From: a virus
Direction: 5' to 3' (one strand)
DNA length: 47,694 bases
Virus record (IMG/VR): IMGVR_UViG_3300022538_000189
This document shows positions 21,641 through 47,694 of the stretch, piece by piece. A program made the position numbers and the translations under genes. How positions within the stretch are numbered: position 1 is the first letter of the stretch; each line of letters begins with the position of its first letter. Below the pieces are notes generated by a model. It was not told the origin of the DNA, searched no databases, and saw nothing but the letters and a program-made list of their open reading frames with translations.

Positions 21641-21902
21641 GTAGCGTCCTCTTTTGCAGATTATGATATTGATAATGTAATCCGTGTCCTGTGAGGACAC
21701 ACTTTGCAGTTTAAATATAATTTGGCAAACCAAGTAGGAGTTTAACCCACGCCAAAACGTTTGGAGCGTCTTATGCTGTCGTTACACCATTGGCTCACGT
21801 GTTGGATGCACAGGATTTACTTGCAGACCTATTATCTGCTCACCTATACATCCATTAGTGCAGTTTTTTTGGTTATCAGTAGAGACTGCTAACTCTAACA
21901 TT

Positions 21903-21976
21903 TGGGGTGATATGGCAGACTCGAACCGCCTTCGCCTCGTTCACAGCGAGGGGCTTTACCCATAAGCTAATACCAC
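21903..21976 (-). tRNA. tRNA-His (GUG), CCA encoded.
   Basis: Hand-folded cloverleaf. Acceptor GTGGTAT/ATATCAC, D stem GCTT/AAGC, anticodon stem-loop CCTCG-CTGTGAA-CGAGG, T arm GGCGG-TTCGAGT-CTGCC, discriminator C. Confidence 0.75.
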
Positions 21977-21979
21977 AAT

Positions 21980-22055
21980 TGGTGGACCAGAAAGGGACTC
22001 GAACCCTTAATTCCTGCGTGCAAAACAGGTGTTTTCCCAGTTAAACTATCAGCCC
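21980..22055 (-). tRNA. tRNA-Ala (UGC), CCA encoded.
   Basis: Anticodon arm CCTGT-TTTGCAC-GCAGG, D stem GTTT/AAAC, T arm AAGGG-TTCGAGT-CCCTT. The acceptor starts GGG with a G3:U70 pair. There is one extra nucleotide between the T stem and the acceptor 3' strand. Confidence 0.65.
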
Positions 22056-22063
22056 ATAATGCC

Positions 22064-22111
22064 TGGTAGCGGAGCCAACAGACTCACCAGCTTTTGCTGT
22101 ATTTCACTACC
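22064..22111 (-). ncRNA. 48-nt tRNA-slot element: an acceptor-like 7-bp helix with no cloverleaf.
   Basis: GGTAGTG…CGCTACC plus an unpaired A. The interior holds only small hairpins (CAGC-AAAA-GCTG). It occupies a slot between tRNA-Ala and tRNA-Asp with the same 7-8 nt spacing as the real tRNAs. Confidence 0.35.
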
Positions 22112-22118
22112 ATTACAG

Positions 22119-22189
22119 CCGACGTAATCAGAAATGAACTGATATCTTCCTGCGTGACAGGCAGGTGCTTTGCATTAAGCTATACGCCG
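22119..22189 (-). tRNA. tRNA-Asp (GUC), CCA not encoded.
   Basis: Acceptor CGGCGTA/TACGTCG, D stem GCTT/AAGC, anticodon arm CCTGC-CTGTCAC-GCAGG, T arm ATCAG-TTCATTT-CTGAT, discriminator G. Confidence 0.7.
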
Positions 22190-22200
22190 ATATTGATTTA

Positions 22201-22274
22201 CGGAGAAAGTAGGATTCGAACCACCGACTCCTTGCTTCCAAAGCAAGTACGCTGACCAGACTGCGTTACTTCCC
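22201..22274 (-). tRNA. tRNA-Pro (UGG)-like, with a weakened T stem and acceptor stem.
   Basis: The anticodon arm CTTGC-TTTGGAA-GCAAG and D arm ACGC/GCGT are good and the T loop is TTCGAAT. The T stem (GGTGG/CCTAC) and the acceptor each carry 2 mismatches in my hand fold. Confidence 0.5.
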
Positions 22275-22280
22275 AATAAA

Positions 22281-22354
22281 TGGAGCAGATAAAGAGAGTC
22301 GAACTCTTATCTATCGGGTGGAAACCGCTAATACTACCGTTGTACTATACCCGC
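22281..22354 (-). tRNA. tRNA-Gly (UCC), CCA encoded.
   Basis: Acceptor GCGGGTA/TATCTGC (two G:U pairs), anticodon loop TTTCCAC, T arm AAGAG-TTCGACT-CTCTT. The 5' 21 nt overlap the 3' end of the CDS at 22334-22621. Confidence 0.65.
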
Positions 22355-22621
22355 TCTTGCTTTATCTTTTCTTTCTATAATTATATTATTCGCCTCTGCA
22401 TTTGCAATTACTAATGATTGCCAATGTGCCACAAAACTTACAGCATTCTGGACTACCTGTGGAGTTACTCGTTCCTGTAATAAAATGAACTCATCTTCTG
22501 TCATTCGTCTAACTGAGTTAATAAAATCATTTACTACCGATACTGCTGTAACTTCCCCTGCTGTTATAGGAATTGCTAAAAGACTCAAAATAACAACTGC
22601 TATTATTAATATTTTTTTCAT
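22334..22621 (-). CDS. Small secreted or membrane-anchored protein encoded inside the tRNA array.
   Basis: I chose the ATG at 22621 (SD GGAGA; ATGA overlap with the upstream stop). The N-terminus MKKILIIAVVILSLLAIPITAG is signal-peptide-like. 95 aa. Confidence 0.6.
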   Translation of the reverse strand: MKKILIIAVVILSLLAIPITAGEVTAVSVVNDFINSVRRMTEDEFILLQERVTPQVVQNAVSFVAHWQSLVIANAEANNIIIERKDKARAGIVQR

Positions 22622-22806
22622 TTTAAAATCTCCTCTAAACTTTTTGCAGCAATTACAACTTCTTCGGCTTTTTCCATACAAGCATCACATAATAACTCGT
22701 GATGAAATGCTCCTGGCACAATATGCCCATTATAATACTCAATTCTACTTAAATATTTAAGTGGTAAAAGCCTTTTACATTGCAAACAATGACCAAACCT
22801 TTTCAT
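22618..22806 (-). CDS. Small zinc-ribbon protein encoded inside the tRNA array.
   Basis: I chose the ATG at 22806 (SD AAGGAA). 62 aa with CLQC…CDAC. Confidence 0.5.
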   Translation of the reverse strand: MKRFGHCLQCKRLLPLKYLSRIEYYNGHIVPGAFHHELLCDACMEKAEEVVIAAKSLEEILK

Positions 22807-22822
22807 TCTTATTCCTTTTAAA

Positions 22823-22897
22823 TGGAGCCCATAGACCAGAATCGAACTGTCATCTAAGGTATACAACACCCTTATAATACCATTATACTATACAGGC
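22823..22897 (-). tRNA. tRNA-Thr (UGU), CCA encoded.
   Basis: Acceptor GCCTGTA/TATGGGC, anticodon arm AGGGT-GTTGTAT-ACCTT, T loop TTCGATT. The T stem has a 1-nt bulge in my hand fold. Confidence 0.6.
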
Positions 22898-22903
22898 TTA
22901 AAA

Positions 22904-22977
22904 TGGCTATAGAGCACAGAGTTGAACTGTGGTCTCAAGGGTCAAATCCTTGCATCCTACCGTTAAACGACTCTACA
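22904..22977 (-). tRNA. tRNA-Gln (UUG), CCA encoded.
   Basis: U1:A72 and G73 as in bacterial tRNA-Gln. Anticodon arm CAAGG-ATTTGAC-CCTTG, with a perfect T arm CACAG-TTCAACT-CTGTG. Confidence 0.7.
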
Positions 22978-22982
22978 ATAAC

Positions 22983-23048
22983 TTGGCGGAGTACGACTTA
23001 TAAGTATATACCGTCACGTACCACACTATCATGGGAATTTACCGCCAA
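22983..23048 (-). ncRNA. 66-nt tRNA-slot element: a perfect 7-bp terminal helix, no T loop, and no foldable cloverleaf.
   Basis: TTGGCGG…CCGCCAA. Internal palindromes ACTTATAAGT and GTACG…CGTAC. It sits 2-5 nt from the flanking tRNA-Asn and tRNA-Gln. Confidence 0.35.
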
Positions 23049-23050
23049 TA

Positions 23051-23126
23051 TGGCTGCGAAGGCAGGCATCGAACCTGCATATCCCTGATTAACAGTCAGG
23101 TTCATTACCAATTATAATACTTCGCA
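23051..23126 (-). tRNA. tRNA-Asn (GUU), CCA encoded.
   Basis: Acceptor TGCGAAG/CTTCGCA, anticodon arm CCTGA-CTGTTAA-TCAGG, T arm GCAGG-TTCGATG-CCTGC, discriminator G. Confidence 0.8.
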
Positions 23127-23133
23127 ATAAATT

Positions 23134-23222
23134 TAGGGGTGCCATCAGCAGAGGTTAACATGTATGGCGTTCCGCTTGGTGGGTACTTACGATTACCTCA
23201 AACGACTCGGACACTACCCCTA
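23134..23222 (-). ncRNA. 89-nt tRNA-slot element with a Ser/Leu-like D-loop sequence but no T arm; tRNA-like or degenerate class-II tRNA.
   Basis: Terminal helix TAGGGGT…ACCCCTA. CCGAGTCGTTTGAGG resembles a class-II D arm. The best anticodon-like hairpin is GGTA-ATCGTAAG-TACC with an 8-nt loop. No TTCGA-type T loop is present. Confidence 0.3.
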
Positions 23223-23225
23223 AAA

Positions 23226-23299
23226 TGGTACCGATACCTTGAGTTGAACAAAGATCTTCCGCTCATCAAGCAGACGTTCTACCATTGAACTACATCGGT
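23226..23299 (-). tRNA. tRNA-Ile (GAU), CCA encoded.
   Basis: Acceptor ACCGATG/TATCGGT, D stem GTTC/GAAC, anticodon arm TCTGC-TTGATGA-GCGGA, T arm CTTTG-TTCAACT-CAAGG. Confidence 0.75.
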
Positions 23300-29840: not shown

Positions 29841-30017
29841 ATGAAATATTTTTTTAATAGTTTGAGGAAAATGGATTTTGAGAAAATCAAAATATCTCAA
29901 GCCCTAAGACTTTTCAAATTTAACTATCTTAGGGGAAGAATAGAAAGAAAGGAGTATAAATATTTAGTGAAACTAATCTATAAAAATAAAAAAATGAAAA
30001 GGAGATTCGCACATTGA
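29841..30017 (+). CDS. 58-aa basic protein, translationally coupled to the amidoligase gene.
   Basis: ATG at 29841 with SD aaggaaggag. Its TGA (30015-30017) overlaps the TTG start of the next gene (TTGA). It is below the ORF-track size cutoff. Confidence 0.45.
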   Translation: MKYFFNSLRKMDFEKIKISQALRLFKFNYLRGRIERKEYKYLVKLIYKNKKMKRRFAH

Positions 30018-31606
30018 ACACAGAAAAAAAAGTTAATAAATTAACCTGTGAAGGTTGCAAGAAGAAAATTGATGAAAGATACGCCCTTGAAAGCGGAGAT
30101 TGTTATTATTGCCTGGATTGTTGGCTGGGTAAGTACGAAAACCACCTACTATTTCACTATGATTATAAACCGAAGCCAATATTTTGTAAAATGTCATTCG
30201 AGAAGAACCCTCTTTTCTTAGGAATTGAGCTTGAAGTAGAAGCAAACGACGACACCGATGAATATTATGATGATGAAGACGACGACAGCAACAGCGACGG
30301 TTATTTACAGGATTATGCTTATGGTATTATGAAATCGTACCCCTGTTATATCAAATACGATGGAAGCCTCAATAATCATGGAATGGAGATTGTAACCCAC
30401 CCGCAATCGGTTAAATATCATAAGAGGATTTTTAAGTGGAAGCAACTGCTTGAAACATTAAAAGCTGACGGATTCACCTCGTACAAAAATAATAGATGCG
30501 GACTACATATCCACATATCAAAAAAATGGTTTAAGCCAGAAGATTTTTTGAAATTTAACATATTTTTTGATAAAAATTTCTCTGTAATGAAACGCTTTTC
30601 AAAAAGGACAAAGACAAACTATTGTAATAAAGTAAATGCAGAAGAAACAAGAAGAATATCCAAAGATAAAAAGAAAGCACAACTTGAGGAGTGGTACGAT
30701 CATTATAGATGTGTATATTTCGGAAATCCTACCACGATAGAACTCCGTATATTCAGAGGAACTCTTGATATAGACCGCTTTAATGCCACCCTTGATATAA
30801 CGGAAGCCCTTGCCTATTTTGTTAAAAGTTATTCACTTGTATTTTTTATCAAGGCAACTAAAAAACAATTATGGTTTTCATTCTTAGCTTTTATGAAACA
30901 ATCAAAGAAATACCATAAGTTATTAAAATACTTAGAAAAAAAGACCCTTCTATATTGCCCTCTTAACAATATACCAAGACAAGGAACAATACTTGAAAGT
31001 AATGTAGAGAGAAAAGACCTTCTAACTTTAATGGGAAATTCCAATATTAAAGAATTTTTGAAAGGGAAAGAATTAAATAAATTGGAGTATTATTTTGATG
31101 ATTTTGAAGATTATATAATTAACTATCAAAATGATGTCTATTTCCTAAGAGATAATTGCTATCTACCGATTAATTTTGAGAAAATAGTAATGTATAACAA
31201 ACATTACAACGCACAAAAGCGAAAAATGATTTTAGATTTTTTTATTGAGTACGGTTTTACTTTTGAGATTCAAAGGGAAAATATAAATCTAAATATCAGA
31301 AATAGAAAAGAATTCGCCACAGCTTTAGGAGTAGATATAGACAAGATTAGGAAAGAAAGGGAAAAGAAAAACCAACTTGACGAAAAGCTAATGAAAAAAG
31401 CCAACAAGAGAGCAGGGAGAACCAGGAATAATAATATTTACGGTACACTAGAATTTACAAGAACAGGTAGGACTAATAGTGTGATAAGCATAGACACCAA
31501 GAATCGAGATTGGGAAACAGAGAAAATTCACCGCCTGATAACAAAAGCCCTTGCAAAAAGAGAGAATAAACATTATATCTTTATAATCAAAAATAAAAAT
31601 AATTAA
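30014..31606 (+). CDS. Amidoligase (Amidoligase_2 family, glutamine-synthetase-like fold) with an N-terminal zinc ribbon.
   Basis: 530 aa with a TTG start (SD GGAGA 8 nt upstream). CEGC…CYYCLDC at the N-terminus, then LGIELEVEA, an acidic insert, YIKYDGSLNNHGMEIVTHP, CGLHIHISK and TIELRIFRGT. Confidence 0.65.
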   Translation: MNTEKKVNKLTCEGCKKKIDERYALESGDCYYCLDCWLGKYENHLLFHYDYKPKPIFCKMSFEKNPLFLGIELEVEANDDTDEYYDDEDDDSNSDGYLQDYAYGIMKSYPCYIKYDGSLNNHGMEIVTHPQSVKYHKRIFKWKQLLETLKADGFTSYKNNRCGLHIHISKKWFKPEDFLKFNIFFDKNFSVMKRFSKRTKTNYCNKVNAEETRRISKDKKKAQLEEWYDHYRCVYFGNPTTIELRIFRGTLDIDRFNATLDITEALAYFVKSYSLVFFIKATKKQLWFSFLAFMKQSKKYHKLLKYLEKKTLLYCPLNNIPRQGTILESNVERKDLLTLMGNSNIKEFLKGKELNKLEYYFDDFEDYIINYQNDVYFLRDNCYLPINFEKIVMYNKHYNAQKRKMILDFFIEYGFTFEIQRENINLNIRNRKEFATALGVDIDKIRKEREKKNQLDEKLMKKANKRAGRTRNNNIYGTLEFTRTGRTNSVISIDTKNRDWETEKIHRLITKALAKRENKHYIFIIKNKNN

Positions 31607-31622
31607 AAGGAGAAAAAAATAT

Positions 31623-32435
31623 ATGTGTATAATTGTTTTTAAACCCAAAGGAGTAAAACCACCAAAGGAAAAAATTTTAAGGAACTGCTTTTCAAACAAT
31701 GCTGACGGTATGGGAATAGCAATTCAAAGGGATAATAAAATAATAATTAATAAATTTATGAAAATAGAGCCTTTTATAAATCATATCAGACATAGCGTAA
31801 GAAAAGAAGATAATGTTATTTATCACTTTAGGATTGCTACGCATGGAAGGGTTAGCATTGAAAACGCCCACCCTTTTATTATCACAAAAGACTGTAAAGA
31901 AATGAACGAAAGCGAGAGTATAACAGAAAAGAATATCTTAGCCCATAACGGAATAATAATTTCTTTAGTTGACGATCAAAAAACAAACGATAGTAAGGTT
32001 TTAGCCCACATTTTAGCCGACAGGGAGATTAACAGAAACCTTTTTAAATCGAAAGGAATAAGAAAGTTAATTAAAACTATCTTAGCAACCGACAAGCTAA
32101 TAATAATGAATAAATCAGGTAACTTTTTTATGATAGGAGATTTTGAAAGGGAAAAAGGAATATACTATTCAAACCTAACCTATAAATATAATACTGAATA
32201 CTTACAAAGATACTATGATGATTATTATTATATCCCCTGGAATAGCAAAGACAAAAAATCTAACCTGACAATCGAAGAAGCAAAAAGGCAGAAATTATTA
32301 TCCGAAACCGATAAAATTAGGGTTAGTGGTGCTTGTTGTGCATATTGTAACACCAGGAAAGAAGTATATTATTTCTGGGATATCGAAGAAAATCTTTGTG
32401 AAAACTGTTTCCATTCAATCTATGAAATAGAATAA
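31623..32435 (+). CDS. Class-II (Ntn, Cys2) glutamine amidotransferase with a C-terminal zinc ribbon.
   Basis: 270 aa. N-terminal MCIIVF with Cys directly after the Met. Also ADGMGIA, HFRIATHG, ENAHPF, LAHNGII and NDS. C-terminal CCAYC…CENC. Confidence 0.65.
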   Translation: MCIIVFKPKGVKPPKEKILRNCFSNNADGMGIAIQRDNKIIINKFMKIEPFINHIRHSVRKEDNVIYHFRIATHGRVSIENAHPFIITKDCKEMNESESITEKNILAHNGIIISLVDDQKTNDSKVLAHILADREINRNLFKSKGIRKLIKTILATDKLIIMNKSGNFFMIGDFEREKGIYYSNLTYKYNTEYLQRYYDDYYYIPWNSKDKKSNLTIEEAKRQKLLSETDKIRVSGACCAYCNTRKEVYYFWDIEENLCENCFHSIYEIE

Positions 32436-34085: not shown

Positions 34086-35030
34086 TTGAAATTATCAAAT
34101 GTACATAATATACCACAAGCTATGGTGAATGCTCTGAGCGATTTCCAGGAACCAAAAAAAGATATCCTGAGGGTATCTGAGTTAATAGGAGCTCCAAAGC
34201 AGAAAAAATTACGAATAAAATATTGGGCTTTCATAGAAGAAGATGTCAGCGAAAGATTATGGAGTTTATTAGGACAATCAGTTCATTATATCTTAGAAAA
34301 AGGAGCTCCTGAGAACGCATTTAAAGAAGAACGATTGATGTACAAAATTGATGGAGTAGTTATTTCAGGACAATCCGATTTATGGTGTAATGAAGAAATA
34401 GGAGACTATAAGACTACAAGTGTTTTTTCATTCCTGTTGGGTATAAAACCTGATTGGGTTGCTCAACTTAATGTATATAAATGGCTATGGGAAAAGAACG
34501 GATTTAAGACTAAGTCTTTGAAAATACACGCTATATTAAGAGATTGGATTCGTTCCAAAGCGATGTTAGAACCTAAATATCCTCAAATACCTTTCATTAC
34601 CGTTGATATACCAATGTGGACAATGGAAGAAACAGAGAAATATATCAGAAGAAGAATTGCACTTCATAAATTACCGATAGCTCCACTTTGTACAGAAGAA
34701 GAAAAATGGACACGACCAACTACTTACGCAATTACAGAAAAGGGAGCAAAAAGAGCAAGAAGGGTATGCACTACTTTAGCAGAAGCAAAAATGTGGATGA
34801 AAGATAATAGCAAATGGTATATCGTAGCCGATAAGGAAAGAAAGACAAACAGAGAACCCTTTGCAATTATGAAACACGGATTAGTGAAGCCTAAAGCATC
34901 CTTCAAAACATTAGAAGAAGCAGAACTATATATAAGAGATAATGAAACCTTAGAAATAGATATACGAAAAGGTAAAAATGTTAGATGTGAGGGATATTGT
35001 AATGTAGCCAAATGGTGTAATAAGAAATGA
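34086..35030 (+). CDS. PD-(D/E)XK nuclease of the Cas4/RecB-like type with a C-terminal Cys cluster.
   Basis: 314 aa with a TTG start after AAAGGGGGTGATAAAAA. Motifs GQSVHYILE, GQSDLW, IGDYKTTS (D-x-K) and QLNVYKW (QxxxY). Cysteines at PLC… and CEGYCNVAKWC. Confidence 0.6.
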   Translation: MKLSNVHNIPQAMVNALSDFQEPKKDILRVSELIGAPKQKKLRIKYWAFIEEDVSERLWSLLGQSVHYILEKGAPENAFKEERLMYKIDGVVISGQSDLWCNEEIGDYKTTSVFSFLLGIKPDWVAQLNVYKWLWEKNGFKTKSLKIHAILRDWIRSKAMLEPKYPQIPFITVDIPMWTMEETEKYIRRRIALHKLPIAPLCTEEEKWTRPTTYAITEKGAKRARRVCTTLAEAKMWMKDNSKWYIVADKERKTNREPFAIMKHGLVKPKASFKTLEEAELYIRDNETLEIDIRKGKNVRCEGYCNVAKWCNKK

Positions 35031-35034
35031 AGGA

Positions 35035-35068
35035 AAAAAGAAAGGGTGGCTCAAATGCCACCCTCTTC
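35035..35068. terminator. Bidirectional terminator at the convergence of the plus and minus blocks.
   Basis: AGGGTGGC-6 nt-GCCACCCT. It is flanked by an A-run on the left (a U-tract for the minus strand) and CTTCTTAT on the right. Confidence 0.75.
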
Positions 35069-35773: not shown

Positions 35774-36249
35774 TTTCTACCACCCCCTTTGAATATATTT
35801 CTACTAACATCAAAAATATGTTCACAATAAGGACAAATCACCATTGGAGCTCTATGCTGTGAGCCAGGCGTTAATGCTCTCAAGTCTGCACGAGACAATA
35901 GTTTTGCCCTCTCTAACCATTCCTCTTTGTTCTCCTCACTCGCCTGCGACTGTGCAATATCTAAACATTCCGTATCTGTTCCTGCGATTTCTTCTACTGT
36001 ATATCCAAAATCCTCGATCCACCTATCATATATCCTAATGAGTTTATTACATCTATTGACTGTCAAATCAACATCAGGTTGAGCACAGTATTCCTCAAAT
36101 GACGAAAAATCTAACTCTAAATAGTATGCATTCGTTTTTACTGCCTTCAAGCAAACAGCAAGAGACATAAAATCTTTGTGTATATTGCTTTTTATTGCAA
36201 CAATAATATTATGTGTTTTCTGTGCTTCGCTAATTACTATTTCACCCAT
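35770..36249 (-). CDS. Hypothetical protein with a C-terminal CxxC.
   Basis: 159 aa with SD AAGGGGGTGATAGG. ICPYCEHIF lies near the C-terminus. Confidence 0.45.
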   Translation of the reverse strand: MGEIVISEAQKTHNIIVAIKSNIHKDFMSLAVCLKAVKTNAYYLELDFSSFEEYCAQPDVDLTVNRCNKLIRIYDRWIEDFGYTVEEIAGTDTECLDIAQSQASEENKEEWLERAKLLSRADLRALTPGSQHRAPMVICPYCEHIFDVSRNIFKGGGRK

Positions 36250-36392
36250 CCTATCACCCCCTTATAAGCTATGTATATTAATTTATACAAATCAATGAAG
36301 CTATCTATTACTAATCCGACCATAACAACCTTAAATGTAAACCAGAACAGACCTGTACATTGAACCCACGTTAAATCATATAAAAATGTCAT
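36237..36392 (-). CDS. 51-aa membrane micropeptide candidate.
   Basis: ATG at 36392 in an ATGA overlap with the rtcB stop. Sequence MTFLYDLTWVQCTGLFWFTFKVVMVGLVIDSFIDLYKLIYIAYKGVIGWVK. Confidence 0.4.
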   Translation of the reverse strand: MTFLYDLTWVQCTGLFWFTFKVVMVGLVIDSFIDLYKLIYIAYKGVIGWVK

Positions 36393-37564
36393 CCTTTTAT
36401 CACCCCTATTGGTATTAATCGTTCTTTTATTTCACAAAGATCTTTCTGTAATTCCATTACTTTATCTATGTTCTTGTAAGCAGAAGGAGCTTCATCTAAC
36501 TGACTGACTGTTCTCACGCTATGGATTACTCCCTTTAATTCGAGCTTATGCTGTTCTTCTGCTAAGTCTAATTCTGCTTTAGCTTTAGACCTTGACATTT
36601 TTCTCCCTGCACCATGAGAACAGGAAGTAAAACTTTCAGGATTACCAAGCCCTTTAGTTATGTAACTAAAACTCCCCTGACTGCCAGGAATTATCCCTAT
36701 CTCTCCAAGTCTCGCACTTATAGCACCCTTTCTATGCACCCATACATTCTTACCAAAATGGTTTTCCTGTCTTACGTAGTTATGTATGACATCTATATCT
36801 TCCTCTATAAATGCACTAAGCAAGTGCTTATCCAAGATATTTTTAATCTTATCCATCATAACCCTTCTATTGGCTTCTGCAAACTCCACACAATAATTCA
36901 TTTCTTTTAAGTAATCTTGCCCCTCTTTACTATCAACTGGTAAGAAAGCTAAGTCATAACTCGGAGCCACCTGCGTATGCCATTTAGCATTTAAGTCTTT
37001 GGCTAATTGATTATAATGTGACGCAACTTTATACCCCAAGTTCCTGCTTCCAGAGTGTAGCATTATCCACAAGCTATTATCCTCACCCACCTGAAACTCA
37101 ATGAAATGATTGCCACCACCAAGAGTTCCTAATTGTTGTGCGGCACTTTGCAATTCATCAGGTATGACATCCTTTGTCAGTAAGTTCCAATGCAATGGCG
37201 GTAATGCGTCAGAATTTGCTTCTTCATTATGTTTGAAACCGACAGGAATTACCTCTCTGATTTCACTCATTAACTCCTTAACTTTTTCTTTCTTTAATTG
37301 CACTACATTTAATTTGATTGCCCTCATTCCGCAACCTATGTCAACGCCTACTGCATTAGGTATGATATAAGCATGAGTAGCTAACACCGTACCAATAGGC
37401 ATACCATAGCCCTGATGACAGTCAGGAAGTAGCACTATTTGTCTATAAGAAAAAAACAACTTAGATAAGTTCTCTGCTTGTAACATTGCTCCGTTCTCTA
37501 TATAATCTAACCACATCTTAATTGGTATTCTATTATTTCTCTTATCAAATTTTACTCTTTCCAT
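36389..37564 (-). CDS. rtcB: RtcB RNA 3'-phosphate/2',3'-cyclic-phosphate ligase.
   Basis: 391 aa from the ATG at 37564 (TAATG coupling). Motifs VDIGCGM, GGGNHFIE, HSGSRNLG, PGSQGSFSY and SCSHGAGR. Confidence 0.85.
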   Translation of the reverse strand: MERVKFDKRNNRIPIKMWLDYIENGAMLQAENLSKLFFSYRQIVLLPDCHQGYGMPIGTVLATHAYIIPNAVGVDIGCGMRAIKLNVVQLKKEKVKELMSEIREVIPVGFKHNEEANSDALPPLHWNLLTKDVIPDELQSAAQQLGTLGGGNHFIEFQVGEDNSLWIMLHSGSRNLGYKVASHYNQLAKDLNAKWHTQVAPSYDLAFLPVDSKEGQDYLKEMNYCVEFAEANRRVMMDKIKNILDKHLLSAFIEEDIDVIHNYVRQENHFGKNVWVHRKGAISARLGEIGIIPGSQGSFSYITKGLGNPESFTSCSHGAGRKMSRSKAKAELDLAEEQHKLELKGVIHSVRTVSQLDEAPSAYKNIDKVMELQKDLCEIKERLIPIGVIKG

Positions 37565-38172
37565 TAGCAACCACCCTCTTTCTTTATTATTTTAATTAAT
37601 TGCATTTCTATTCTTTCAAGTTCTTCCATTGAATGCTTTGCAATTCCACCATTCTTTAGTGCTCTATCCTGTATCATAGTATACCATGCTTTGCCTCTAA
37701 TGTCAATCATCTTTTGTAAAAACCAAAAAGGATTTTTATGAGCACTCCATATTGAAAAGACGTGATGTTTAACACACAACGCTACGCCATTATCAACGTC
37801 CCACCTGACATTGAAATTCGATCTTCCAATAAGATGATGAGCATTTAGTCCGTGCCCTTTTCCTAATCCATTTACATTCTGACATCTTTTATCTGTCACA
37901 ATCTCACATCTATTTTGAGCAATTACCTTTACTGCTTGAGCCCACAAAACATCTAATCGTTTCTTTAATATCCATCTTGCAGTATGCTTCTTCTTAGGAC
38001 GACCACCTATTCGTCTAACTTTTGGACACCACGAAGGAGCAGTATCCTCAATCATATTAGAAAGAGGAATTTCGTTTTGTTTCCTCTGAGTAAGAGAGCA
38101 TTGAACACCCAGCCCTTTTACTCCAAGTATATAGTGTGAACACTTCTTACATTTAACGTCCTTTTTCTTCAT
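37564..38172 (-). CDS. NinG/Rap-like HNH-type endonuclease with an N-terminal zinc ribbon.
   Basis: 202 aa from the ATG at 38172 (SD AAGGAAGTGAT). CKKC…, then LNAHHLIGRSNFNVRWDVDNGVALCVKHH. Confidence 0.5.
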   Translation of the reverse strand: MKKKDVKCKKCSHYILGVKGLGVQCSLTQRKQNEIPLSNMIEDTAPSWCPKVRRIGGRPKKKHTARWILKKRLDVLWAQAVKVIAQNRCEIVTDKRCQNVNGLGKGHGLNAHHLIGRSNFNVRWDVDNGVALCVKHHVFSIWSAHKNPFWFLQKMIDIRGKAWYTMIQDRALKNGGIAKHSMEELERIEMQLIKIIKKEGGC

Positions 38173-38509
38173 TCTTATCACTTCCTTTCAATAGCTCGTG
38201 AGCGTAACCCATTGTATTAAACATAACACCCATCAATGCTTTCATTATTCCATCTTCTGTTTTAATACCCCTGTGTTCTTTCCATACTGCCATAAAATGA
38301 CGGAATAAAGATTTCATATAAGTTTCATAAGGTATTCCTTTTTGCCAGTTATCTGATTTTCTCACACCAAGTGCTGTATGTCTATTTTTTTCCATATATT
38401 TAGCAAACTCTTCAAGCACTAAAGGAGAAAAAAATCCTTCATAATCCAATTTACCTTCTACTATGTCTCTCGTTGCTCCTGTTTCAAATTCACGCATTTT
38501 TTTAACCAT
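38153..38509 (-). CDS. DUF5664-like protein (dATP/dGTP diphosphohydrolase N-terminal-like domain).
   Basis: 118 aa. REFETGATRD…GKLDYEGFFSP…NWQKGIPYETYMKSLFRHF matches my recollection of that family's pattern: F.tGA.Rd, then NW.kG, then s..RH. Confidence 0.45.
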   Translation of the reverse strand: MVKKMREFETGATRDIVEGKLDYEGFFSPLVLEEFAKYMEKNRHTALGVRKSDNWQKGIPYETYMKSLFRHFMAVWKEHRGIKTEDGIMKALMGVMFNTMGYAHELLKGSDKNEEKGR

Positions 38510-38876
38510 TCTTGAACCTCTTTTTCAAAATTTTATAAGTCTTTAACCAACCAGGAAACCCCTGCAAATTCAAATCATCTATATAGGCATCTGCATAGAT
38601 CTTTTTTGTATTCCACCAATAAACTTGCTTTACATTCTCATTTATGCATTCAAAATATTTTAGAATATCCCATTTTTCCATGAGTTTTATAGGTTCTTCT
38701 AACCACGCTTTACTTCTACAAGTCCAGAGTATCATTCTATACCCTTCATTATATAACTTTTTCAATACCTTTTTGCAATTTGGCATTAATTTATTCTCTG
38801 TATCAATAGCTCTTTTGCTCTCTCTTATTGTCCCATCAAAATCTATCGCCAATATTGGCTTTCCTAAATAAGCCAT
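38502..38876 (-). CDS. Small HAD-superfamily (DxDxT) phosphatase.
   Basis: 124 aa. LAIDFDGTI at the N-terminus and YIDD near the C-terminus. SD AAGGGGGTGATATAA. Confidence 0.55.
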   Translation of the reverse strand: MAYLGKPILAIDFDGTIRESKRAIDTENKLMPNCKKVLKKLYNEGYRMILWTCRSKAWLEEPIKLMEKWDILKYFECINENVKQVYWWNTKKIYADAYIDDLNLQGFPGWLKTYKILKKRFKNG

Positions 38877-39377
38877 TTATATCACCCCCTTATCAAAATG
38901 TTCTCTTGCTTTTCTATTTAATATTTCTATTATCTGTTCATCTGTGAAGTAACATTGGCTACGTGGATTACGTCCTTTGGCATCCCAACGTGCCAACTGT
39001 ATTAAATCAGGGAGCCAACAGTGGTTTGCTAACTCCAAACATTTCTTTAATCCCTGCATTTCTCCTTTTAAATATGTCCAGATTCTCATGTGATGTTTTA
39101 CTAACCATACAGTTTTACAACTCGAAAATCCTTCTATGAGCTTGACACTATCCTTTGTGTGGTGATTACTGTAAGTCACTTTCCCCACATCATGCAAGAG
39201 TACCGCCAAAATCAAATCCAAGTCCATTGTTTCTCTTATCGCCCACTTGAATACTTGATAAGTATGTTTCAATGCGTCTCCTTCAGGGTGATATTCTACT
39301 TGCTGTTCAATACCTTTCAAAGCATGTAATACATCAAGAATTGGTTTCATATTCTTTTTTGTAAAATAATCTTCCAT
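38877..39377 (-). CDS. HD-domain phosphohydrolase (resembles the HD domain of CCA-adding enzymes).
   Basis: 166 aa from the ATG at 39377 (SD ATGGGGGTG). Motifs YHPEGDALKHT and LLHDVGK. Confidence 0.6.
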   Translation of the reverse strand: MEDYFTKKNMKPILDVLHALKGIEQQVEYHPEGDALKHTYQVFKWAIRETMDLDLILAVLLHDVGKVTYSNHHTKDSVKLIEGFSSCKTVWLVKHHMRIWTYLKGEMQGLKKCLELANHCWLPDLIQLARWDAKGRNPRSQCYFTDEQIIEILNRKAREHFDKGVI

Positions 39378-39378
39378 A

Positions 39379-40341
39379 TTAACACCCCCATAACATCTTT
39401 TCAACCTCAAACATTATAAATTTTTCCCAATACTTTCTATCTACTTTATCAGGATAGTCGCTTGCGACTGCTAAGTCTTTTACTTCTCCGATAAGAGTTT
39501 CCAGTAAAGGAGCAACTTCGCTCTTGTAATCTATTTTTCCTGCTTTGATATCTTTCAAGTATTCTGCTTGTGCCAATGGAAATTTTATTTCTCCATCTTT
39601 ATAGAGTTCTATCAACTGCATTGAGGCTCTTATAGCATGAGATACTGCCTTCCAATCTATTCCTTCATTCTTTTCTGCTAATCTTGCTCTTGCACCATAA
39701 GCATTATAAAACGTTACCATTATATCAAAAAGATATCGCAAGGTAGCAGTCTCCTGTATTTTTTTACCACATACTTGATAAATCCTAAGTCTGTCCTTTC
39801 CTATCTCGTATTTATGGATATGTTCTCTTTGTGGTAGTTTATCCCAAACCTGCTTTAATCTTGTCTTGTTCATATCATTACCCTTCTGTGTATCAAAATC
39901 ATTAATGAAATCCATAACTTTTCCAGCAGAGGCTAACCTACTCCCCTTAATTCCATATTTAGAAGCTTGTCTCATTGCATATCCTACAAAAGCATGCATG
40001 TCTTTTGTTATGAAAAGATGTTTATTGAGACATATTGCTTTCCAAGTATCTGATGTTTCTAAAATCATATCATCAGGAGCGTGAAGCATATCAATAGCAA
40101 CGGTTTGCCCCTGACAAGCCAATTCCAAAAAGTAATGTAACGAATAGACTTCTGTATCTGTATCTCCCGAAGTATTTTTGCCTACTCCAACCTTTGTTTT
40201 TTCTGAATAACATTTTGGTATTCTCCCTAAAAATATTTGTTCTTTAGTGGGCATAAATATACCCTTATAATCAGTATCAGAATCTTTCGTATCTGTTCCG
40301 TATAAATGACTTCCGAATTTCATTTTTACTATTGTATTCAT
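39379..40341 (-). CDS. Pol-beta-superfamily nucleotidyltransferase of the RlaP (RNA-repair-associated) type.
   Basis: 320 aa. N-terminal KFGSHLYGTDTKDSDTDYKGIFMP. TAATG-coupled to dnaB. Confidence 0.55.
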   Translation of the reverse strand: MNTIVKMKFGSHLYGTDTKDSDTDYKGIFMPTKEQIFLGRIPKCYSEKTKVGVGKNTSGDTDTEVYSLHYFLELACQGQTVAIDMLHAPDDMILETSDTWKAICLNKHLFITKDMHAFVGYAMRQASKYGIKGSRLASAGKVMDFINDFDTQKGNDMNKTRLKQVWDKLPQREHIHKYEIGKDRLRIYQVCGKKIQETATLRYLFDIMVTFYNAYGARARLAEKNEGIDWKAVSHAIRASMQLIELYKDGEIKFPLAQAEYLKDIKAGKIDYKSEVAPLLETLIGEVKDLAVASDYPDKVDRKYWEKFIMFEVEKMLWGC

Positions 40342-41627
40342 TACTTACCACCGCCTTGATATAAGTCAGGTTGATATTGAGTAAAAGAAATGTGTTCCAT
40401 TCGTGCATATTCAGGAAATATATTAACCCCTATCCTTCCTATCGTACCGTCTCTATTCTTACTGATCAATATCTTCATTTCTTCAGGTTCTTCTCCGCCA
40501 AACCTTTCAGGATTAATCATTTGTAGTCTCTCTTTCCAATACAATAACAACACAATATTGCTAACTTCCTCTATCCTGCCTGATTGTCTTAAATCACTCA
40601 ATCTCGGTTCTCTAATCTCTTCGTTGTTACGATTGAACTGTGATAAACAGACAGTTCCAAGTCCATTTCGTAATGTCATTCGTTGTAATTCGATAATATT
40701 ATTTGACGTAGAGGTATAATCCTGTTCACCTAAATTCTGCAAGTAATCGAATACTAAGAAGTCGGGTTTATACTTTCTAACATATTTATTTGCGTCAGTC
40801 ATGCTAAAGACTTTCTTGATGTTCAAATTCCATTCCCCTGAAATTTGTTTTGCTCGTCTTTGTAATCTATTCTGTTCTTCATCGGTAAGATTATTTTTTC
40901 TAATCCTCATAATAGGAATTAACTCAAGATTACCCAATAATCTCCTACTTACTTCTTGCGGTGTCATTTCGGTAGATAAAAATAAAACCCCCTTACCACA
41001 CTTACATTGATTAATAGCCATTTGCATACCTGCAACTGACTTACATTGTGAAGTCCAACCGCCTATAGTTAAGAGTTCTCCTCTATCTAATCCGCCTATA
41101 TATTTATTTAAACTTCTTATCCCGAAAGTAAACTCTGTTCCTTTGGTAACTTCCATTAAAGTTTTTTCAAGCAACATTTGTAATGTTTCTTCTTTAATCT
41201 CTATATTATTGAGAGTTTCTAATTCTGTCAAAGCATCATCAATAGTCATTTGTCCGTCATTTACTGCTGTCAAAAGTCCATGCTGTGCTCTTTTGATAGA
41301 TGCTTTTTGAATTAAAGCGACATAATGCTCTATATTTTTAGGTGTAGGAACTGAATTCACTAAATTGGTAAGATACGTAACACCACCTATTTTTTCTAAC
41401 TTGCCTACCTCATTCAATCCTGATGTAATAGTTACTAAATCTACATTGACACCTGTTTGTAGCATATCTACCATCAATTTATATATTGTCTTATGCTCAC
41501 CTTTGTAAAAGTCATTTGGTGACAATGTCTCAACTGTAATGAAGAAAGCGTCCTCGTCTAATAAACAACTTCCAAGACAAGCCTGTTCTGCATTTATTTC
41601 TTGTGGTAAATTCTTTGTTAAGTTCAA
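40341..41627 (-). CDS. dnaB: DnaB-family replicative helicase.
   Basis: 428 aa with a TTG start (SD AGGGGGTG). Motifs NAEQACLGSCLLD, FDYLQNL and LRQSGRIEEVSNIVLLLY. The P-loop reads GGWTSQCKS, not GxxxxGK[ST]. Confidence 0.75.
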   Translation of the reverse strand: MNLTKNLPQEINAEQACLGSCLLDEDAFFITVETLSPNDFYKGEHKTIYKLMVDMLQTGVNVDLVTITSGLNEVGKLEKIGGVTYLTNLVNSVPTPKNIEHYVALIQKASIKRAQHGLLTAVNDGQMTIDDALTELETLNNIEIKEETLQMLLEKTLMEVTKGTEFTFGIRSLNKYIGGLDRGELLTIGGWTSQCKSVAGMQMAINQCKCGKGVLFLSTEMTPQEVSRRLLGNLELIPIMRIRKNNLTDEEQNRLQRRAKQISGEWNLNIKKVFSMTDANKYVRKYKPDFLVFDYLQNLGEQDYTSTSNNIIELQRMTLRNGLGTVCLSQFNRNNEEIREPRLSDLRQSGRIEEVSNIVLLLYWKERLQMINPERFGGEEPEEMKILISKNRDGTIGRIGVNIFPEYARMEHISFTQYQPDLYQGGGK

Positions 41628-43829: not shown

Positions 43830-44267
43830 TTATTTATTACTAAATATAATAGTATATGGCAATTTTCCATATTTTGATTCCAAATAATGTCGAGCATTAC
43901 AAACCCTACATAGTATTTCGAGGTCATCCACTTCTCTCTTACCATCTATAATATCATTCAAAAAATACGAATATCCTTTTCTCTTAGTTTCCCTGCCTCC
44001 CCCACCGTCAATATGATTAATTTCCAATAATCTGATATTTTGGCATCCACATTGATTACAGGCAATATTATTATCCGAAATCATATTAAATATCTTTATC
44101 TTCTTTATTGTGGCACGTTTTCTTTGTTGGGAATTCCTCCATTCCCTATGAATAGCTTGATACTTAGCTTTTTCTTCTTTGTGGTCTGTATAATATTGTT
44201 TTGCGTATGCTAATCTTGCTTCTTTATTTTGTTCGTAATATGTCATTTTATTCTCCTTTTTTCTCAA
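43830..44267 (-). CDS. HNH endonuclease (second copy, homing-type).
   Basis: 145 aa with CNQCG…INHIDGGG…ILCRVCNARH. The N-terminal Y/K-rich region resembles that of the 13320-13712 protein. Confidence 0.7.
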   Translation of the reverse strand: MRKKENKMTYYEQNKEARLAYAKQYYTDHKEEKAKYQAIHREWRNSQQRKRATIKKIKIFNMISDNNIACNQCGCQNIRLLEINHIDGGGGRETKRKGYSYFLNDIIDGKREVDDLEILCRVCNARHYLESKYGKLPYTIIFSNK

Positions 44268-45595: not shown

Positions 45596-46414
45596 TTATA
45601 AACTAACATGGACATCTTTGCCTTTATCTGGACTACCATTAAGTCTTATCCGAACTGCTCCTGTCTCTGGTTTCTGATACATCCCCTTAATTGAGTAATC
45701 TGCATATCCCATGAACGAACCTGTGCTACAATATGTTTCCTTCGTTGGTATAAGTTTCTTGTGCTGATAATCAGGCACCATATACCTTTGCACGAAAGCA
45801 CCTTTCATGTGGACATGTGCCCCACAATATATCTCTGCTTGTGTCATCAATTTCATAGTTGCTACCTTATTTAACTTACCGCCTGCTGTATGTCCGCCAC
45901 CTATCATGTGATGAGCAAAAAGCGTGTAAGTAAAAGGTCTACGTTTGTCTTTTCCGTTCCTACTTTCCCCTATTTGTAGAAAGAAGTAAGCACACCAATC
46001 TGGAAAGTAATCTACTCCTAATCTTTCGCATAGATGGGCAATAGGAGACTCATTTGTAGCTCTCACAGCTCTTTCTTCGTGGTTACCATCAAATGCACCA
46101 AGTATCTTATGATTAATCAATCCAAGCCTCTCGGTTAACAAATCTTTTGCCTGTGGTATGTTATAACAAGCCGAGTATACATTACCCACCGAATCTTTTA
46201 GTGCAGTCTCGAATAAATCACCCATTATTATAGTATAGGCATTAGGTGTATTATTTAGCCAATTTAACCACCCATCAAATTGTTTGGTAGCATACTTTCC
46301 TTCTTCATTTGTTCCACTATACCCTGCTGGATTGCCTACATGTAGGTCTCCGAAAGGCACAATGTAAATATGATTGTATTCCTTCGGAAATATTACTGTT
46401 TTCATTTTAATCAT
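45596..46414 (-). CDS. Calcineurin-like metallophosphoesterase.
   Basis: 272 aa from the ATG at 46414. Motifs GDLHVG, MGDLFE, DGNHE, HHMIGGGH and GAHVH. Confidence 0.7.
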   Translation of the reverse strand: MIKMKTVIFPKEYNHIYIVPFGDLHVGNPAGYSGTNEEGKYATKQFDGWLNWLNNTPNAYTIIMGDLFETALKDSVGNVYSACYNIPQAKDLLTERLGLINHKILGAFDGNHEERAVRATNESPIAHLCERLGVDYFPDWCAYFFLQIGESRNGKDKRRPFTYTLFAHHMIGGGHTAGGKLNKVATMKLMTQAEIYCGAHVHMKGAFVQRYMVPDYQHKKLIPTKETYCSTGSFMGYADYSIKGMYQKPETGAVRIRLNGSPDKGKDVHVSL

Positions 46415-46447
46415 TAGCACCACCCCTTTTTGAATATTGATACTAAT

Positions 46448-46476
46448 ATTATAGCACACTTTGCCCTATTTGTCAA
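46448..46476 (-). promoter_or_regulatory. Promoter family member P4; head of the minus early/middle block.
   Basis: Minus-strand sequence TTGACAAATAGGGCAAAGTGTGCTATAAT. Confidence 0.7.
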
Positions 46477-47414: not shown

Positions 47415-47615
47415 TTACATCACCACCCATACTAAAACTCCACCAGCTATGGTAGCCATAATGTCCCAGATATCCATATAACTATGCTTAACTTTCAAGT
47501 CGTATACTTCCTTTAATACTGCAATTATAATTACAGGAATAATCGGGTAAGTTATAAAGTAATTCGCCATTAAGAATATAACCATACCCGCAATAAAATG
47601 TAATAATTTATCCAT
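47415..47615 (-). CDS. Small two-TM membrane protein.
   Basis: 66 aa. Its ATG lies inside the terminal repeat and overlaps the stop of the 7-648 gene in the circular form. Confidence 0.5.
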   Translation of the reverse strand: MDKLLHFIAGMVIFLMANYFITYPIIPVIIIAVLKEVYDLKVKHSYMDIWDIMATIAGGVLVWVVM

Positions 47616-47694
47616 TAGAAATTTGCCCCAAACATTATTGCATTTGCTTCTGATGGAAATTCACCTAACCCCGTTCCTATTTTTACATAATCAA
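47609..47694. repeat. Terminal direct repeat, copy 2 (identical to 1-86).
   Basis: Identical 86 nt. Confidence 0.9.

Follow-up and report, generated by a model that had tools for sequence, protein, structure and literature searches.

An RlaP-HD gene pair and an RtcB ligase gene as a candidate RNA-repair set in the replication operon of an uncultivated tailed phage

The IMG/VR virus record IMGVR_UViG_3300022538_000189 (47,694 nucleotides, analyzed whole and referred to below as the window) carries six consecutive minus-strand open reading frames (ORFs) directly downstream of dnaB, the last of which codes for an RtcB RNA ligase. A first-pass annotation, made from the sequence alone, had described the six as a translationally coupled island encoding a complete pathway for healing and sealing broken RNA. 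All six ORFs were found, the first joined to dnaB by a TAATG junction, and the motifs quoted for the RlaP (GSHLYGTDTKDSDTDYKG), HD, HAD, and RtcB proteins are all present in them. From the dnaB side onward, the six genes are:

39379-40341, minus strand: RlaP-family Pol-beta nucleotidyltransferase, 320 amino acids (PF10127, phrog_388)
38877-39377, minus strand: stand-alone HD phosphohydrolase, 166 amino acids (PF01966), HD of the CCA-enzyme type
38502-38876, minus strand: capless (C0) HAD-fold phosphatase, 124 amino acids, of the BT0820/phrog_1238 type (PDB 2OBB, 6.9e-11)
38153-38509, minus strand: DUF5664 / dGTP_diPhyd_N protein, 118 amino acids (PF18909)
37564-38172, minus strand: protein with a predicted N-terminal four-Cys zinc ribbon and C-terminal HNH-superfamily domain, 202 amino acids, lineage-restricted
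36389-37564, minus strand: RtcB RNA ligase, 391 amino acids (PF01139, phrog_1075)

The product of 36389-37564 is, as judged by homology, unambiguously an RtcB ligase. It matches PF01139 over its full length (365.5 bits, cut-off 27; E = 6.1e-109) and phrog_1075 with E = 7.6e-122, and it contains the hallmark motifs DIGCGM, GGGNHF, HSGSRNLG, and SCSHGAGR. When the protein was aligned to P. horikoshii RtcB (1UC2/4DWQ), DIGCG fell on DINCG, GNHF on GNHF, HSGSR on HTGSR, IHN on AHN, and SHGAGR on CHGAGR. The catalytic motifs, which we take to hold the metal ligands and the guanylylated His nucleophile, are conserved, and the original assignment holds. By homology, the enzyme would join ends carrying a 3'-phosphate or a 2',3'-cyclic phosphate to 5'-OH ends without prior healing. 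Elsewhere, several phage rtcB genes yielded split tblastn matches, which suggests introns or inteins.

The RlaP gene lies 1.8 kb upstream of rtcB in a common operon, an association that the first-pass annotation had correctly cited from comparative genomics. Its product scores 57.1 bits against PF10127 (cut-off 23) and matches phrog_388 over the full length (E = 3.8e-93), which bears out the family assignment. In the catalytic GS...DxD...D columns, G10, S11, and D22 are invariant among 13 relatives, and D24 and D84 are conserved in at least 90% of them. The nearest clade consists of T4 nrdC.11-like and metagenomic phage proteins (41-56% identity; ~43% to the nrdC.11 proteins of T4-like phages); the Pseudomonas enzymes are not close. 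A sequence search of the PDB with this protein returned nothing. By homology, RlaP is predicted to add one or two nucleoside monophosphates (NMPs) to RNA 3'-OH ends. The Pseudomonas enzyme adds 1-2 NMPs to 3'-OH ends only, rejects 3'-phosphorylated ends, and shows little nucleoside triphosphate specificity; it acts on RNAs rather than on nucleotides or DNA, and in nicked tRNA it favors the 3' end at the break site over the acceptor end (PMC12776372). The distribution of RlaP in phages mirrors that of RNA ligases (PMC7824862). Genes for both proteins are common in GenBank phage records (RtcB, 707; RlaP, 1681), so their presence together in one phage is in itself unsurprising.

The HD protein contains the motifs HPEGDALKHT and LLHDVGK and scores 34.6 bits against PF01966 (cut-off 22), in agreement with its earlier assignment. 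The metal-ligand pattern H...HD...H...H...D is preserved, with E49, H62, D63, H73, H96, and D132 invariant among seven relatives. Its best NCBIfam and PHROG matches are to the HD part of CCA-adding enzymes (NF008137, positions 203-282; phrog_2244, positions 207-344), at scores far below the equivalog cut-offs, indicating a domain type rather than an orthologue of these enzymes. Among 50,697 GenBank phage records, the relatives listed (68 records) almost without exception carry the annotation CCA tRNA nucleotidyltransferase, and bacterial genomes gave weak matches, to full-length CCA enzymes. The PDB search yielded weak PhnZ-type matches only. The HD domain of E. coli Cca strips 2',3'-cyclic phosphate from tRNA 3' ends, according to PMC6961547, which cites Yakunin 2004, and HD-Pnk, as presented in PMC6097658, is a precedent for end healing by an HD-type enzyme. 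By analogy with E. coli Cca, the HD protein fits a role in RNA 3'-end healing.

RlaP and HD form a tight, conserved phage gene pair. Among 25 IMG/VR loci with a full-length HD homologue (38-51% identity), RlaP adjoins HD in 23 and is located upstream on the same strand in 22. The pair was found neither in the cultured-phage records of GenBank nor, as HD next to RlaP, in GTDB representative genomes, and the RlaP preprint (PMC12776372) makes no mention of an HD partner. A tightly linked, apparently phage-restricted partner of RlaP, in the form of a stand-alone HD protein of the CCA-enzyme type, is a novel element of this locus.

To see which genes keep company with one another, we inspected neighborhoods of +/-8-10 kb around anchor genes in viral contigs, with partners detected by tblastn at E <= 1e-3. 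Anchoring on RlaP (80 loci) recovered HD in 23 (within 100 nt in 18), RtcB in 13, an Rnl-type ligase in 6, a kinase in 3, DUF5664 in 2, and HAD in 1; RtcB or Rnl was present within 10 kb in 18 of the 80. None of 80 loci anchored on HAD contained RtcB, RlaP, HD, DUF5664, or Rnl within 8 kb. Of 80 loci anchored on DUF5664, RtcB lay within 10 kb in 3 (adjoining in 2), HAD adjoined in 2, and DnaB was found in 7. RtcB is thus seen near RlaP (13/80) more often than near HAD (0/80; Fisher p = 1.4e-4) or DUF5664 (3/80; p = 0.015). When RtcB itself was the anchor (26 viral loci, 40-54% identity), all of the other five were missing up to a distance of 10 kb in every case. Outside the lineage of the window, the RlaP-HD-RtcB trio recurs in L155/L332, which also carries Rnl, and in L342. 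At another locus (L138:8474-11334), genes for an Rnl-type ligase (PHA02142 OB fold plus RNA_ligase), Prim-Pol, an NT5C-type HAD nucleotidase, and an AAA_33 kinase come after RlaP-HD, which makes the cassette a 5'-phosphate-ligase version of the RlaP-HD set. Homing endonucleases (HNH/NUMOD3, LAGLIDADG, DUF559/Vsr-like) were repeatedly seen within or next to RlaP-HD-RtcB cassettes (L036:11857-12420, L152:1751-2596, L155:8822-9502, L195, L200, and L342).

Relatives of the phage were gathered by means of its lineage-specific HNH protein, and their gene content is as follows:

Window/L027, L036, L038, L040, L041: all six genes in the same order, extra genes inserted between members
L406: DnaB-HAD-DUF5664-HNH-orf159, without RlaP, HD, and RtcB
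L039/L407: MT-A70-MTase-DUF5664-HNH-orf159, without RlaP, HD, and RtcB
L408: MT-A70-HNH-orf159, without RlaP, HD, and RtcB
L409: HNH-orf159-Rnl

Five relatives have both RlaP/HD and RtcB, and three have neither. HAD, DUF5664, and HNH are each retained where the other three are missing: L406 keeps all three, L039/L407 keep DUF5664 and HNH, and L408 keeps HNH. The full set of six occurs only in phages whose DnaB proteins are 70-83% identical. Between its members, the close relatives carry MT-A70, orf65, MazG, orf139, or an HNH/NUMOD3 homing endonuclease, so the junctions are not conserved. In L409, an ATP-dependent Rnl-type ligase (L409:1060-2004) is encoded two genes downstream of the HNH gene, at nearly the position of the other ligase type, as if one had displaced the other; L406 and L408 likewise lack RtcB.

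The censuses and the pattern of presence and absence within the lineage agree, and together they point to a functional core consisting of RlaP-HD and a ligase, with the other three genes being backbone or accessory. We therefore favor, as reasonably probable, the reading that three of the six genes, RlaP, HD, and RtcB, constitute an RNA-repair set of which HAD, DUF5664, and HNH are not components. The gene identities, the catalytic residues, the conservation of the pair, and the co-variation with RtcB are observed. The trio also fits the published "syntax" of RNA repair, in which a ligase is combined with a nucleotidyltransferase and an end-modifying enzyme (Burroughs and Aravind 2016, as cited in PMC7824862 and PMC12776372).

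Several observations weigh against this reading. About 20 of the 25 RlaP-HD loci are without a ligase within 8 kb, so RtcB may be dispensable to the pair, and their association in the window is possibly mere co-inheritance. As the genomes of the lineage are related, one or two insertions or deletions may suffice to explain the co-variation within it. The tblastn threshold may have missed divergent partners. Removal of a 3'-phosphate by HD would compete with RtcB for the same ends. Finally, two of the genes that we leave out do have ties to ligases: a homologue of the HAD protein is part of a repair neighborhood in Listeria phage AG20 (HD-RtcB-Rnl-HAD-phosphoesterase), and DUF5664 sits directly beside RtcB in L111 and L120.

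The last two observations, together with the identical order of the genes in five related phages, would suit the first-pass proposal that all six proteins serve one heal-and-seal pathway, with HD and HAD trimming or healing the ends, RlaP rebuilding them, DUF5664 and HNH assisting, and RtcB sealing. We consider this proposal highly improbable. The five phages are close kin, so that a shared order is expected by descent; additional genes are inserted between the members; and L406, L039/L407, and L408 retain HAD, DUF5664, or HNH with no RlaP, HD, or RtcB. Association with RtcB amounts to 0/80 for HAD and 3/80 for DUF5664. Moreover, RtcB requires no healing, and phosphatases would destroy its substrate (PMC12776372). 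The six genes do not, on this evidence, behave as a functional unit.

Nor does the pathway appear "complete", as had been claimed. RtcB requires a 3'-phosphate or 2',3'-cyclic phosphate, while RlaP leaves a 3'-OH; the two are incompatible, and how the problem is solved in vivo is not known according to the preprint of December 2025 (Carruthers et al.; PMC12776372). The other 63 ORFs of the complete genome yielded no match to a polynucleotide kinase, an ATP-dependent RNA ligase, or RtcA. Given what RtcB needs and the absence of these enzymes from the genome, end-healing phosphatases would destroy rather than prepare its substrate.

Under the favored three-gene reading, the enzymatic steps would follow, by homology, from characterized members of each family. 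RtcB would reseal RNAs, most likely tRNAs, cut by metal-independent ribonucleases that leave 2',3'-cyclic phosphate or 3'-phosphate and 5'-OH ends. The RlaP-HD pair would handle ends that are short of nucleotides, for example after the action of RloC-type "smart" ribotoxins: the CCA-enzyme-type HD phosphoesterase would first remove the 2',3'-cyclic or 3'-phosphate, and RlaP would act after it. The extended 3'-OH end might then be re-phosphorylated, trimmed back to a 3'-phosphate, passed to a host ligase, or never ligated. A role in counter-defense against tRNA- or rRNA-cleaving immunity, as put forward in the first-pass annotation, is a reasonable inference; it accords with the nine tRNA genes clustered in this phage and with the picture of phage RNA repair in the literature (PMC7824862).

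An alternative order of events would make HD the adaptor between RlaP and RtcB: RlaP would extend the end, a phosphodiesterase activity of HD would leave a 3'-phosphate or 2',3'-cyclic phosphate with a net gain of one nucleotide, and RtcB would seal. We regard this scheme as unlikely. If true, it would answer the incompatibility of RlaP and RtcB ends with three proteins, in a genome where neither a kinase nor a cyclase was detected.

The abundance of pair loci with no ligase within 8 kb (~20/25) also bears on the possibility that RlaP-HD is a self-contained, ligase-independent system for 3'-end repair of RNA or tRNA, in effect a split analogue of Cca, with RtcB a parallel gene that shares the operon. 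HD is of the CCA-enzyme type, the chemistry would be complete without a ligase (phosphoesterase action, then NMP addition), and no enzyme that seals 3'-OH ends was detected in the complete genome. Against this, Pseudomonas RlaP favors the break site of nicked tRNA over the acceptor end (PMC12776372), the pair co-varies with RtcB in this lineage, and RlaP is enriched near ligases (18/80 loci). The neighborhoods covered +/-8-10 kb, and ligases could sit elsewhere in the genomes concerned. Taken together, we find ligase-independent repair somewhat unlikely.

The three remaining genes were examined individually. The HAD protein contains DFDGT and all four motifs of its superfamily (DxDxT, T/S, K, and DD), with D12, D14, T16, T52, K92, D100, and D101 invariant among ten sequences. 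Its closest structure is that of the uncharacterized BT0820 (2OBB, 6.9e-11). It falls below every curated cut-off (NF046079, 69.9 against 165, E = 2.7e-19; Pfam Hydrolase_3, 19.7 against 20.9), so the resemblance is at the level of superfamily or subfamily only; to that extent the HAD assignment stands. We considered whether it might be an RNA 3'-phosphatase of the T4 Pnkp type and rejected this candidate: Pnkp is absent from the PDB matches at E <= 1, and there is no consistent linkage to a ligase or kinase (RtcB, RlaP, HD, or Rnl within 8 kb in 0/80 viral loci). One weak match in a crAss-like phage (2e-4) is annotated as polynucleotide kinase/phosphatase. In GenBank, the family occurs among deoxynucleoside triphosphate (dNTP)-metabolism or replication genes in three of the four phages inspected and in an RNA-repair neighborhood in one (Listeria phage AG20). 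The HAD protein probably stands outside the repair set. Of the end-healing functions first ascribed to HD and HAD together, that of HD agrees with its CCA-enzyme type; HAD shows neither similarity to Pnkp among PDB matches at E <= 1 nor consistent linkage to repair genes.

The DUF5664 protein was correctly assigned: it scores 29.6 bits against PF18909 (cut-off 27), and the top Foldseek matches of its AF2 model (pLDDT 81.5) in BFVD are PF18909 phage proteins, with E down to 2.6e-4. Foldseek against the PDB gave nothing significant, only recurrent MazG/HisE/DCTPP1-like matches at E >= 0.4 that are no more than suggestive, and sequence and profile searches of the PDB gave a single non-significant match (E = 0.79). 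We note that the protein (38153-38509; P0013-P0132) retains ~60% identity over >1600 homologous clusters from unrelated viral contigs and contigs of metagenome-assembled genomes (MAGs; Bacteroidota, Thorarchaeota, and others), an unusually high degree of conservation for a phage protein so small and without known function. A Z-genome-type exclusion of nucleotides by HD and DUF5664, in the manner of DatZ and MazZ, was also considered and rejected, since neither a PurZ-like protein nor any other family of nucleotide biosynthesis turned up in the complete genome and since HD is of the CCA type and linked to RlaP.

The product of 37564-38172 had been called NinG-like. No Pfam, PHROG, or NCBIfam match was obtained for it, and only 12 close homologues were found. 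NinG was rejected: among 11 homologues, there was no Pfam match to it even at E <= 5, and an hhalign comparison of the family profile with lambda NinG (PF05766) gave a probability of 0.5%. The HNH part of the description fares better. Weak HNH_2 matches, below the cut-off, were seen in 6 of 11 close homologues (best 0.0043), and a profile search with the family retrieved 1464 remote relatives, some of which score above the Pfam HNH or HNH_2 cut-offs. Residues C8/C11/C25/C49 and C89/C97/H112-H113/N119/N128/C133/H136-H137 are invariant. This Cys/His/Asn pattern and the remote relatives that pass the Pfam cut-offs support the prediction of a zinc ribbon joined to an HNH-superfamily domain. The AF2 model (pLDDT 54) was too poor for a fold search, and sequence and profile searches of the PDB returned nothing. 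We conclude that HAD, DUF5664, and HNH are probable backbone or accessory genes of a replication and nucleotide-metabolism module, and that their exclusion from the repair system is likewise probable.

The setting of these genes raises the further question of whether the locus encodes a repair system at all. It could be a mosaic of accessory and nucleotide-metabolism genes, in which HD, HAD, and DUF5664 (as a MazG-type protein) act on nucleotide pools and RtcB serves, for example, in phage RNA processing. The position directly downstream of dnaB, the HAD relatives among dNTP-metabolism genes, the MazG genes that adjoin these genes in L038 and L051, and the frequent gene insertions, deletions, and homing endonucleases would all be in keeping with this. 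A pairing of RlaP with HD at 23 of 25 loci is hard to ascribe to chance, however; RlaP substrates are RNAs (PMC12776372), RlaP is enriched near RNA ligases, and ARAGORN reported in the window no tRNA introns that would need RtcB. We hold a mosaic without any repair function to be decidedly improbable.

The compact packing of the six genes was central to the original description, and the following features define their surroundings:

40341-41627, minus strand: DnaB-type replicative helicase (PF00772 and PF03796), first gene of the tight chain; context, not repair
36237-36392, minus strand: small hydrophobic ORF of 51 amino acids (orf51), overlapping the RtcB stop codon (ATGA) and conserved in L041
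35041-35066, both strands: strong bidirectional intrinsic-terminator-like hairpin whose 10-bp stem contains six GC pairs, with a T-tract on each strand

Junction lengths were computed from ATG starts preceded by ribosome-binding sites. The description of TAATG and overlapping junctions is accurate in part: TAATG occurs at the dnaB/RlaP and HNH/RtcB junctions, and there are overlaps of 8 nt at HAD/DUF5664 and of ~20 nt at DUF5664/HNH; RlaP and HD are separated by a 1-nt gap, and HD and HAD abut (0 nt). The RtcB/orf51 junction is an ATGA overlap, which extends the coupled chain past the proposed island. The unbroken tight chain in fact comprises 12 genes, starting with dnaB, passing through RtcB and five more ORFs, and ending at the 35041-35066 terminator. 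Of the 69 junctions between genes on the same strand in the window, 34 have gaps of <=1 nt. Since tight packing is common throughout the genome and the chain runs past both ends of the six genes, coupling sets no real boundary to a six-gene unit. The region is the distal half of a ~12-gene early/replication operon that extends from dnaB to the terminator at 35041, and its case cautions against taking tight packing of phage genes as evidence for multi-gene systems. A promoter scan showed no excess of sites (31 against 36 expected). The hairpin lies between the leftward dnaB-RtcB operon and a convergent plus-strand exonuclease gene (34086-35030, phrog_2139).

Compared with known systems, the three-gene set resembles, in its predicted logic of restoring nucleotides and religating, the Pseudomonas RtcB-RlaP(-RtcA) operons (PMC12776372), which likewise hold RtcB and RlaP in one operon. 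It differs in being phage-borne, in lacking RtcA and RtcR, in pairing RlaP with a stand-alone CCA-type HD protein, and in having three unrelated genes between RlaP and RtcB. T4, in a role of the kind proposed here, responds to a tRNA anticodon nuclease, PrrC, with Pnkp and Rnl1 (plus the nrdC.11 RlaP; T4-like RlaP is ~43% identical to that of the window), but its ligase chemistry is the opposite: ends are healed to 3'-OH and 5'-phosphate and joined by an ATP-dependent ligase, whereas only RtcB, and no kinase or Rnl, was detected in the window. The phosphoesterase differs as well, being of the HD type here and the HAD domain of Pnkp in T4. Like the RlaP-HD pair, E. coli Cca (class II, with a C-terminal HD) unites a Pol-beta nucleotidyltransferase with an HD 2',3'-cyclic phosphodiesterase/phosphatase; in the window these are two separate genes, and the nucleotidyltransferase is RlaP (PF10127), of a family that adds 1-2 nucleotides (PMC12776372), and not of the PolyA_pol type. 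In Runella, as related in PMC6097658 (Munir and Shuman 2017), the HD part of HD-Pnk is a 2',3'-phosphoesterase encoded in an end-repair gene cluster; there it is fused to a 5'-kinase and has an ATP-dependent ligase as partner, whereas no kinase was detected in the window, and the likeness noted here is one of domain and context. In A511-like Listeria phages (AG20), a stretch of ~6 kb codes for RtcB together with an HD protein and a homologue of the window HAD, but their HD is of a different subfamily (BLASTP E = 0.034), no RlaP is annotated, an ATP-dependent ligase is present, and AG20 is a 130-kb myovirus. The combination of RlaP-HD with RtcB in a small complete genome with no detectable kinase, cyclase, or ATP-dependent ligase is new, and it offers a compact, testable three-protein system for the question of how RlaP and RtcB ends are made compatible.

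The window is a circularly closed, complete genome of ~47.6 kb (~47,608 bp): an exact terminal direct repeat of 86 nt (positions 1-86 = 47609-47694) is the basis for calling it complete. It belongs to an uncultivated tailed phage, with phage-type content that includes SU10-type portal and adaptor proteins, a GH108 endolysin, a spanin, and nine tRNA genes. A search of GenBank phages at the DNA level gave as its sole match 160 bp (69%) of nrdC.11 of Acinetobacter phage Acj9, so there are no close cultured relatives. An exact look-up of the RtcB protein found no record, and a look-up of the RlaP protein led to a near-identical contig in run SRR7716471. The window contig was binned in a "Candidatus Atribacteria" MAG and its close relative L038 in a "candidate division WOR-3" MAG; with two such discordant bins, the host assignment is unreliable.

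Outside the operon, the tRNA genes form one cluster:

21723-23299, minus strand: nine tRNAs (Trp, His, Ala, Asp, Pro, Gly, Gln, Asn, Ile; ARAGORN)

The cluster is related to repair in theme (tRNA supply and repair) and includes GUN-anticodon tRNAs for His, Asp, and Asn, which are targets of colicin-E5-type nucleases. Upstream in the same leftward region as the operon, a minus-strand gene (45596-46459) matches phrog_7339, a DEDD-type "DNA repair exonuclease" (E = 2e-25), and probably accounts for the Pfam match of the window to an Rv2179c-like 3'-5' exoribonuclease; a weakly HNH-endonuclease-like ORF lies at 43830-44267 on the minus strand (phrog_1985, E = 9e-4). On the plus strand, positions 30014-32435 encode an Amidoligase_2 protein (530 amino acids) and a class-II glutamine amidotransferase (GATase_4, 270 amino acids), a pair that is conserved in L036 and L039 and possibly serves in peptide or base modification.

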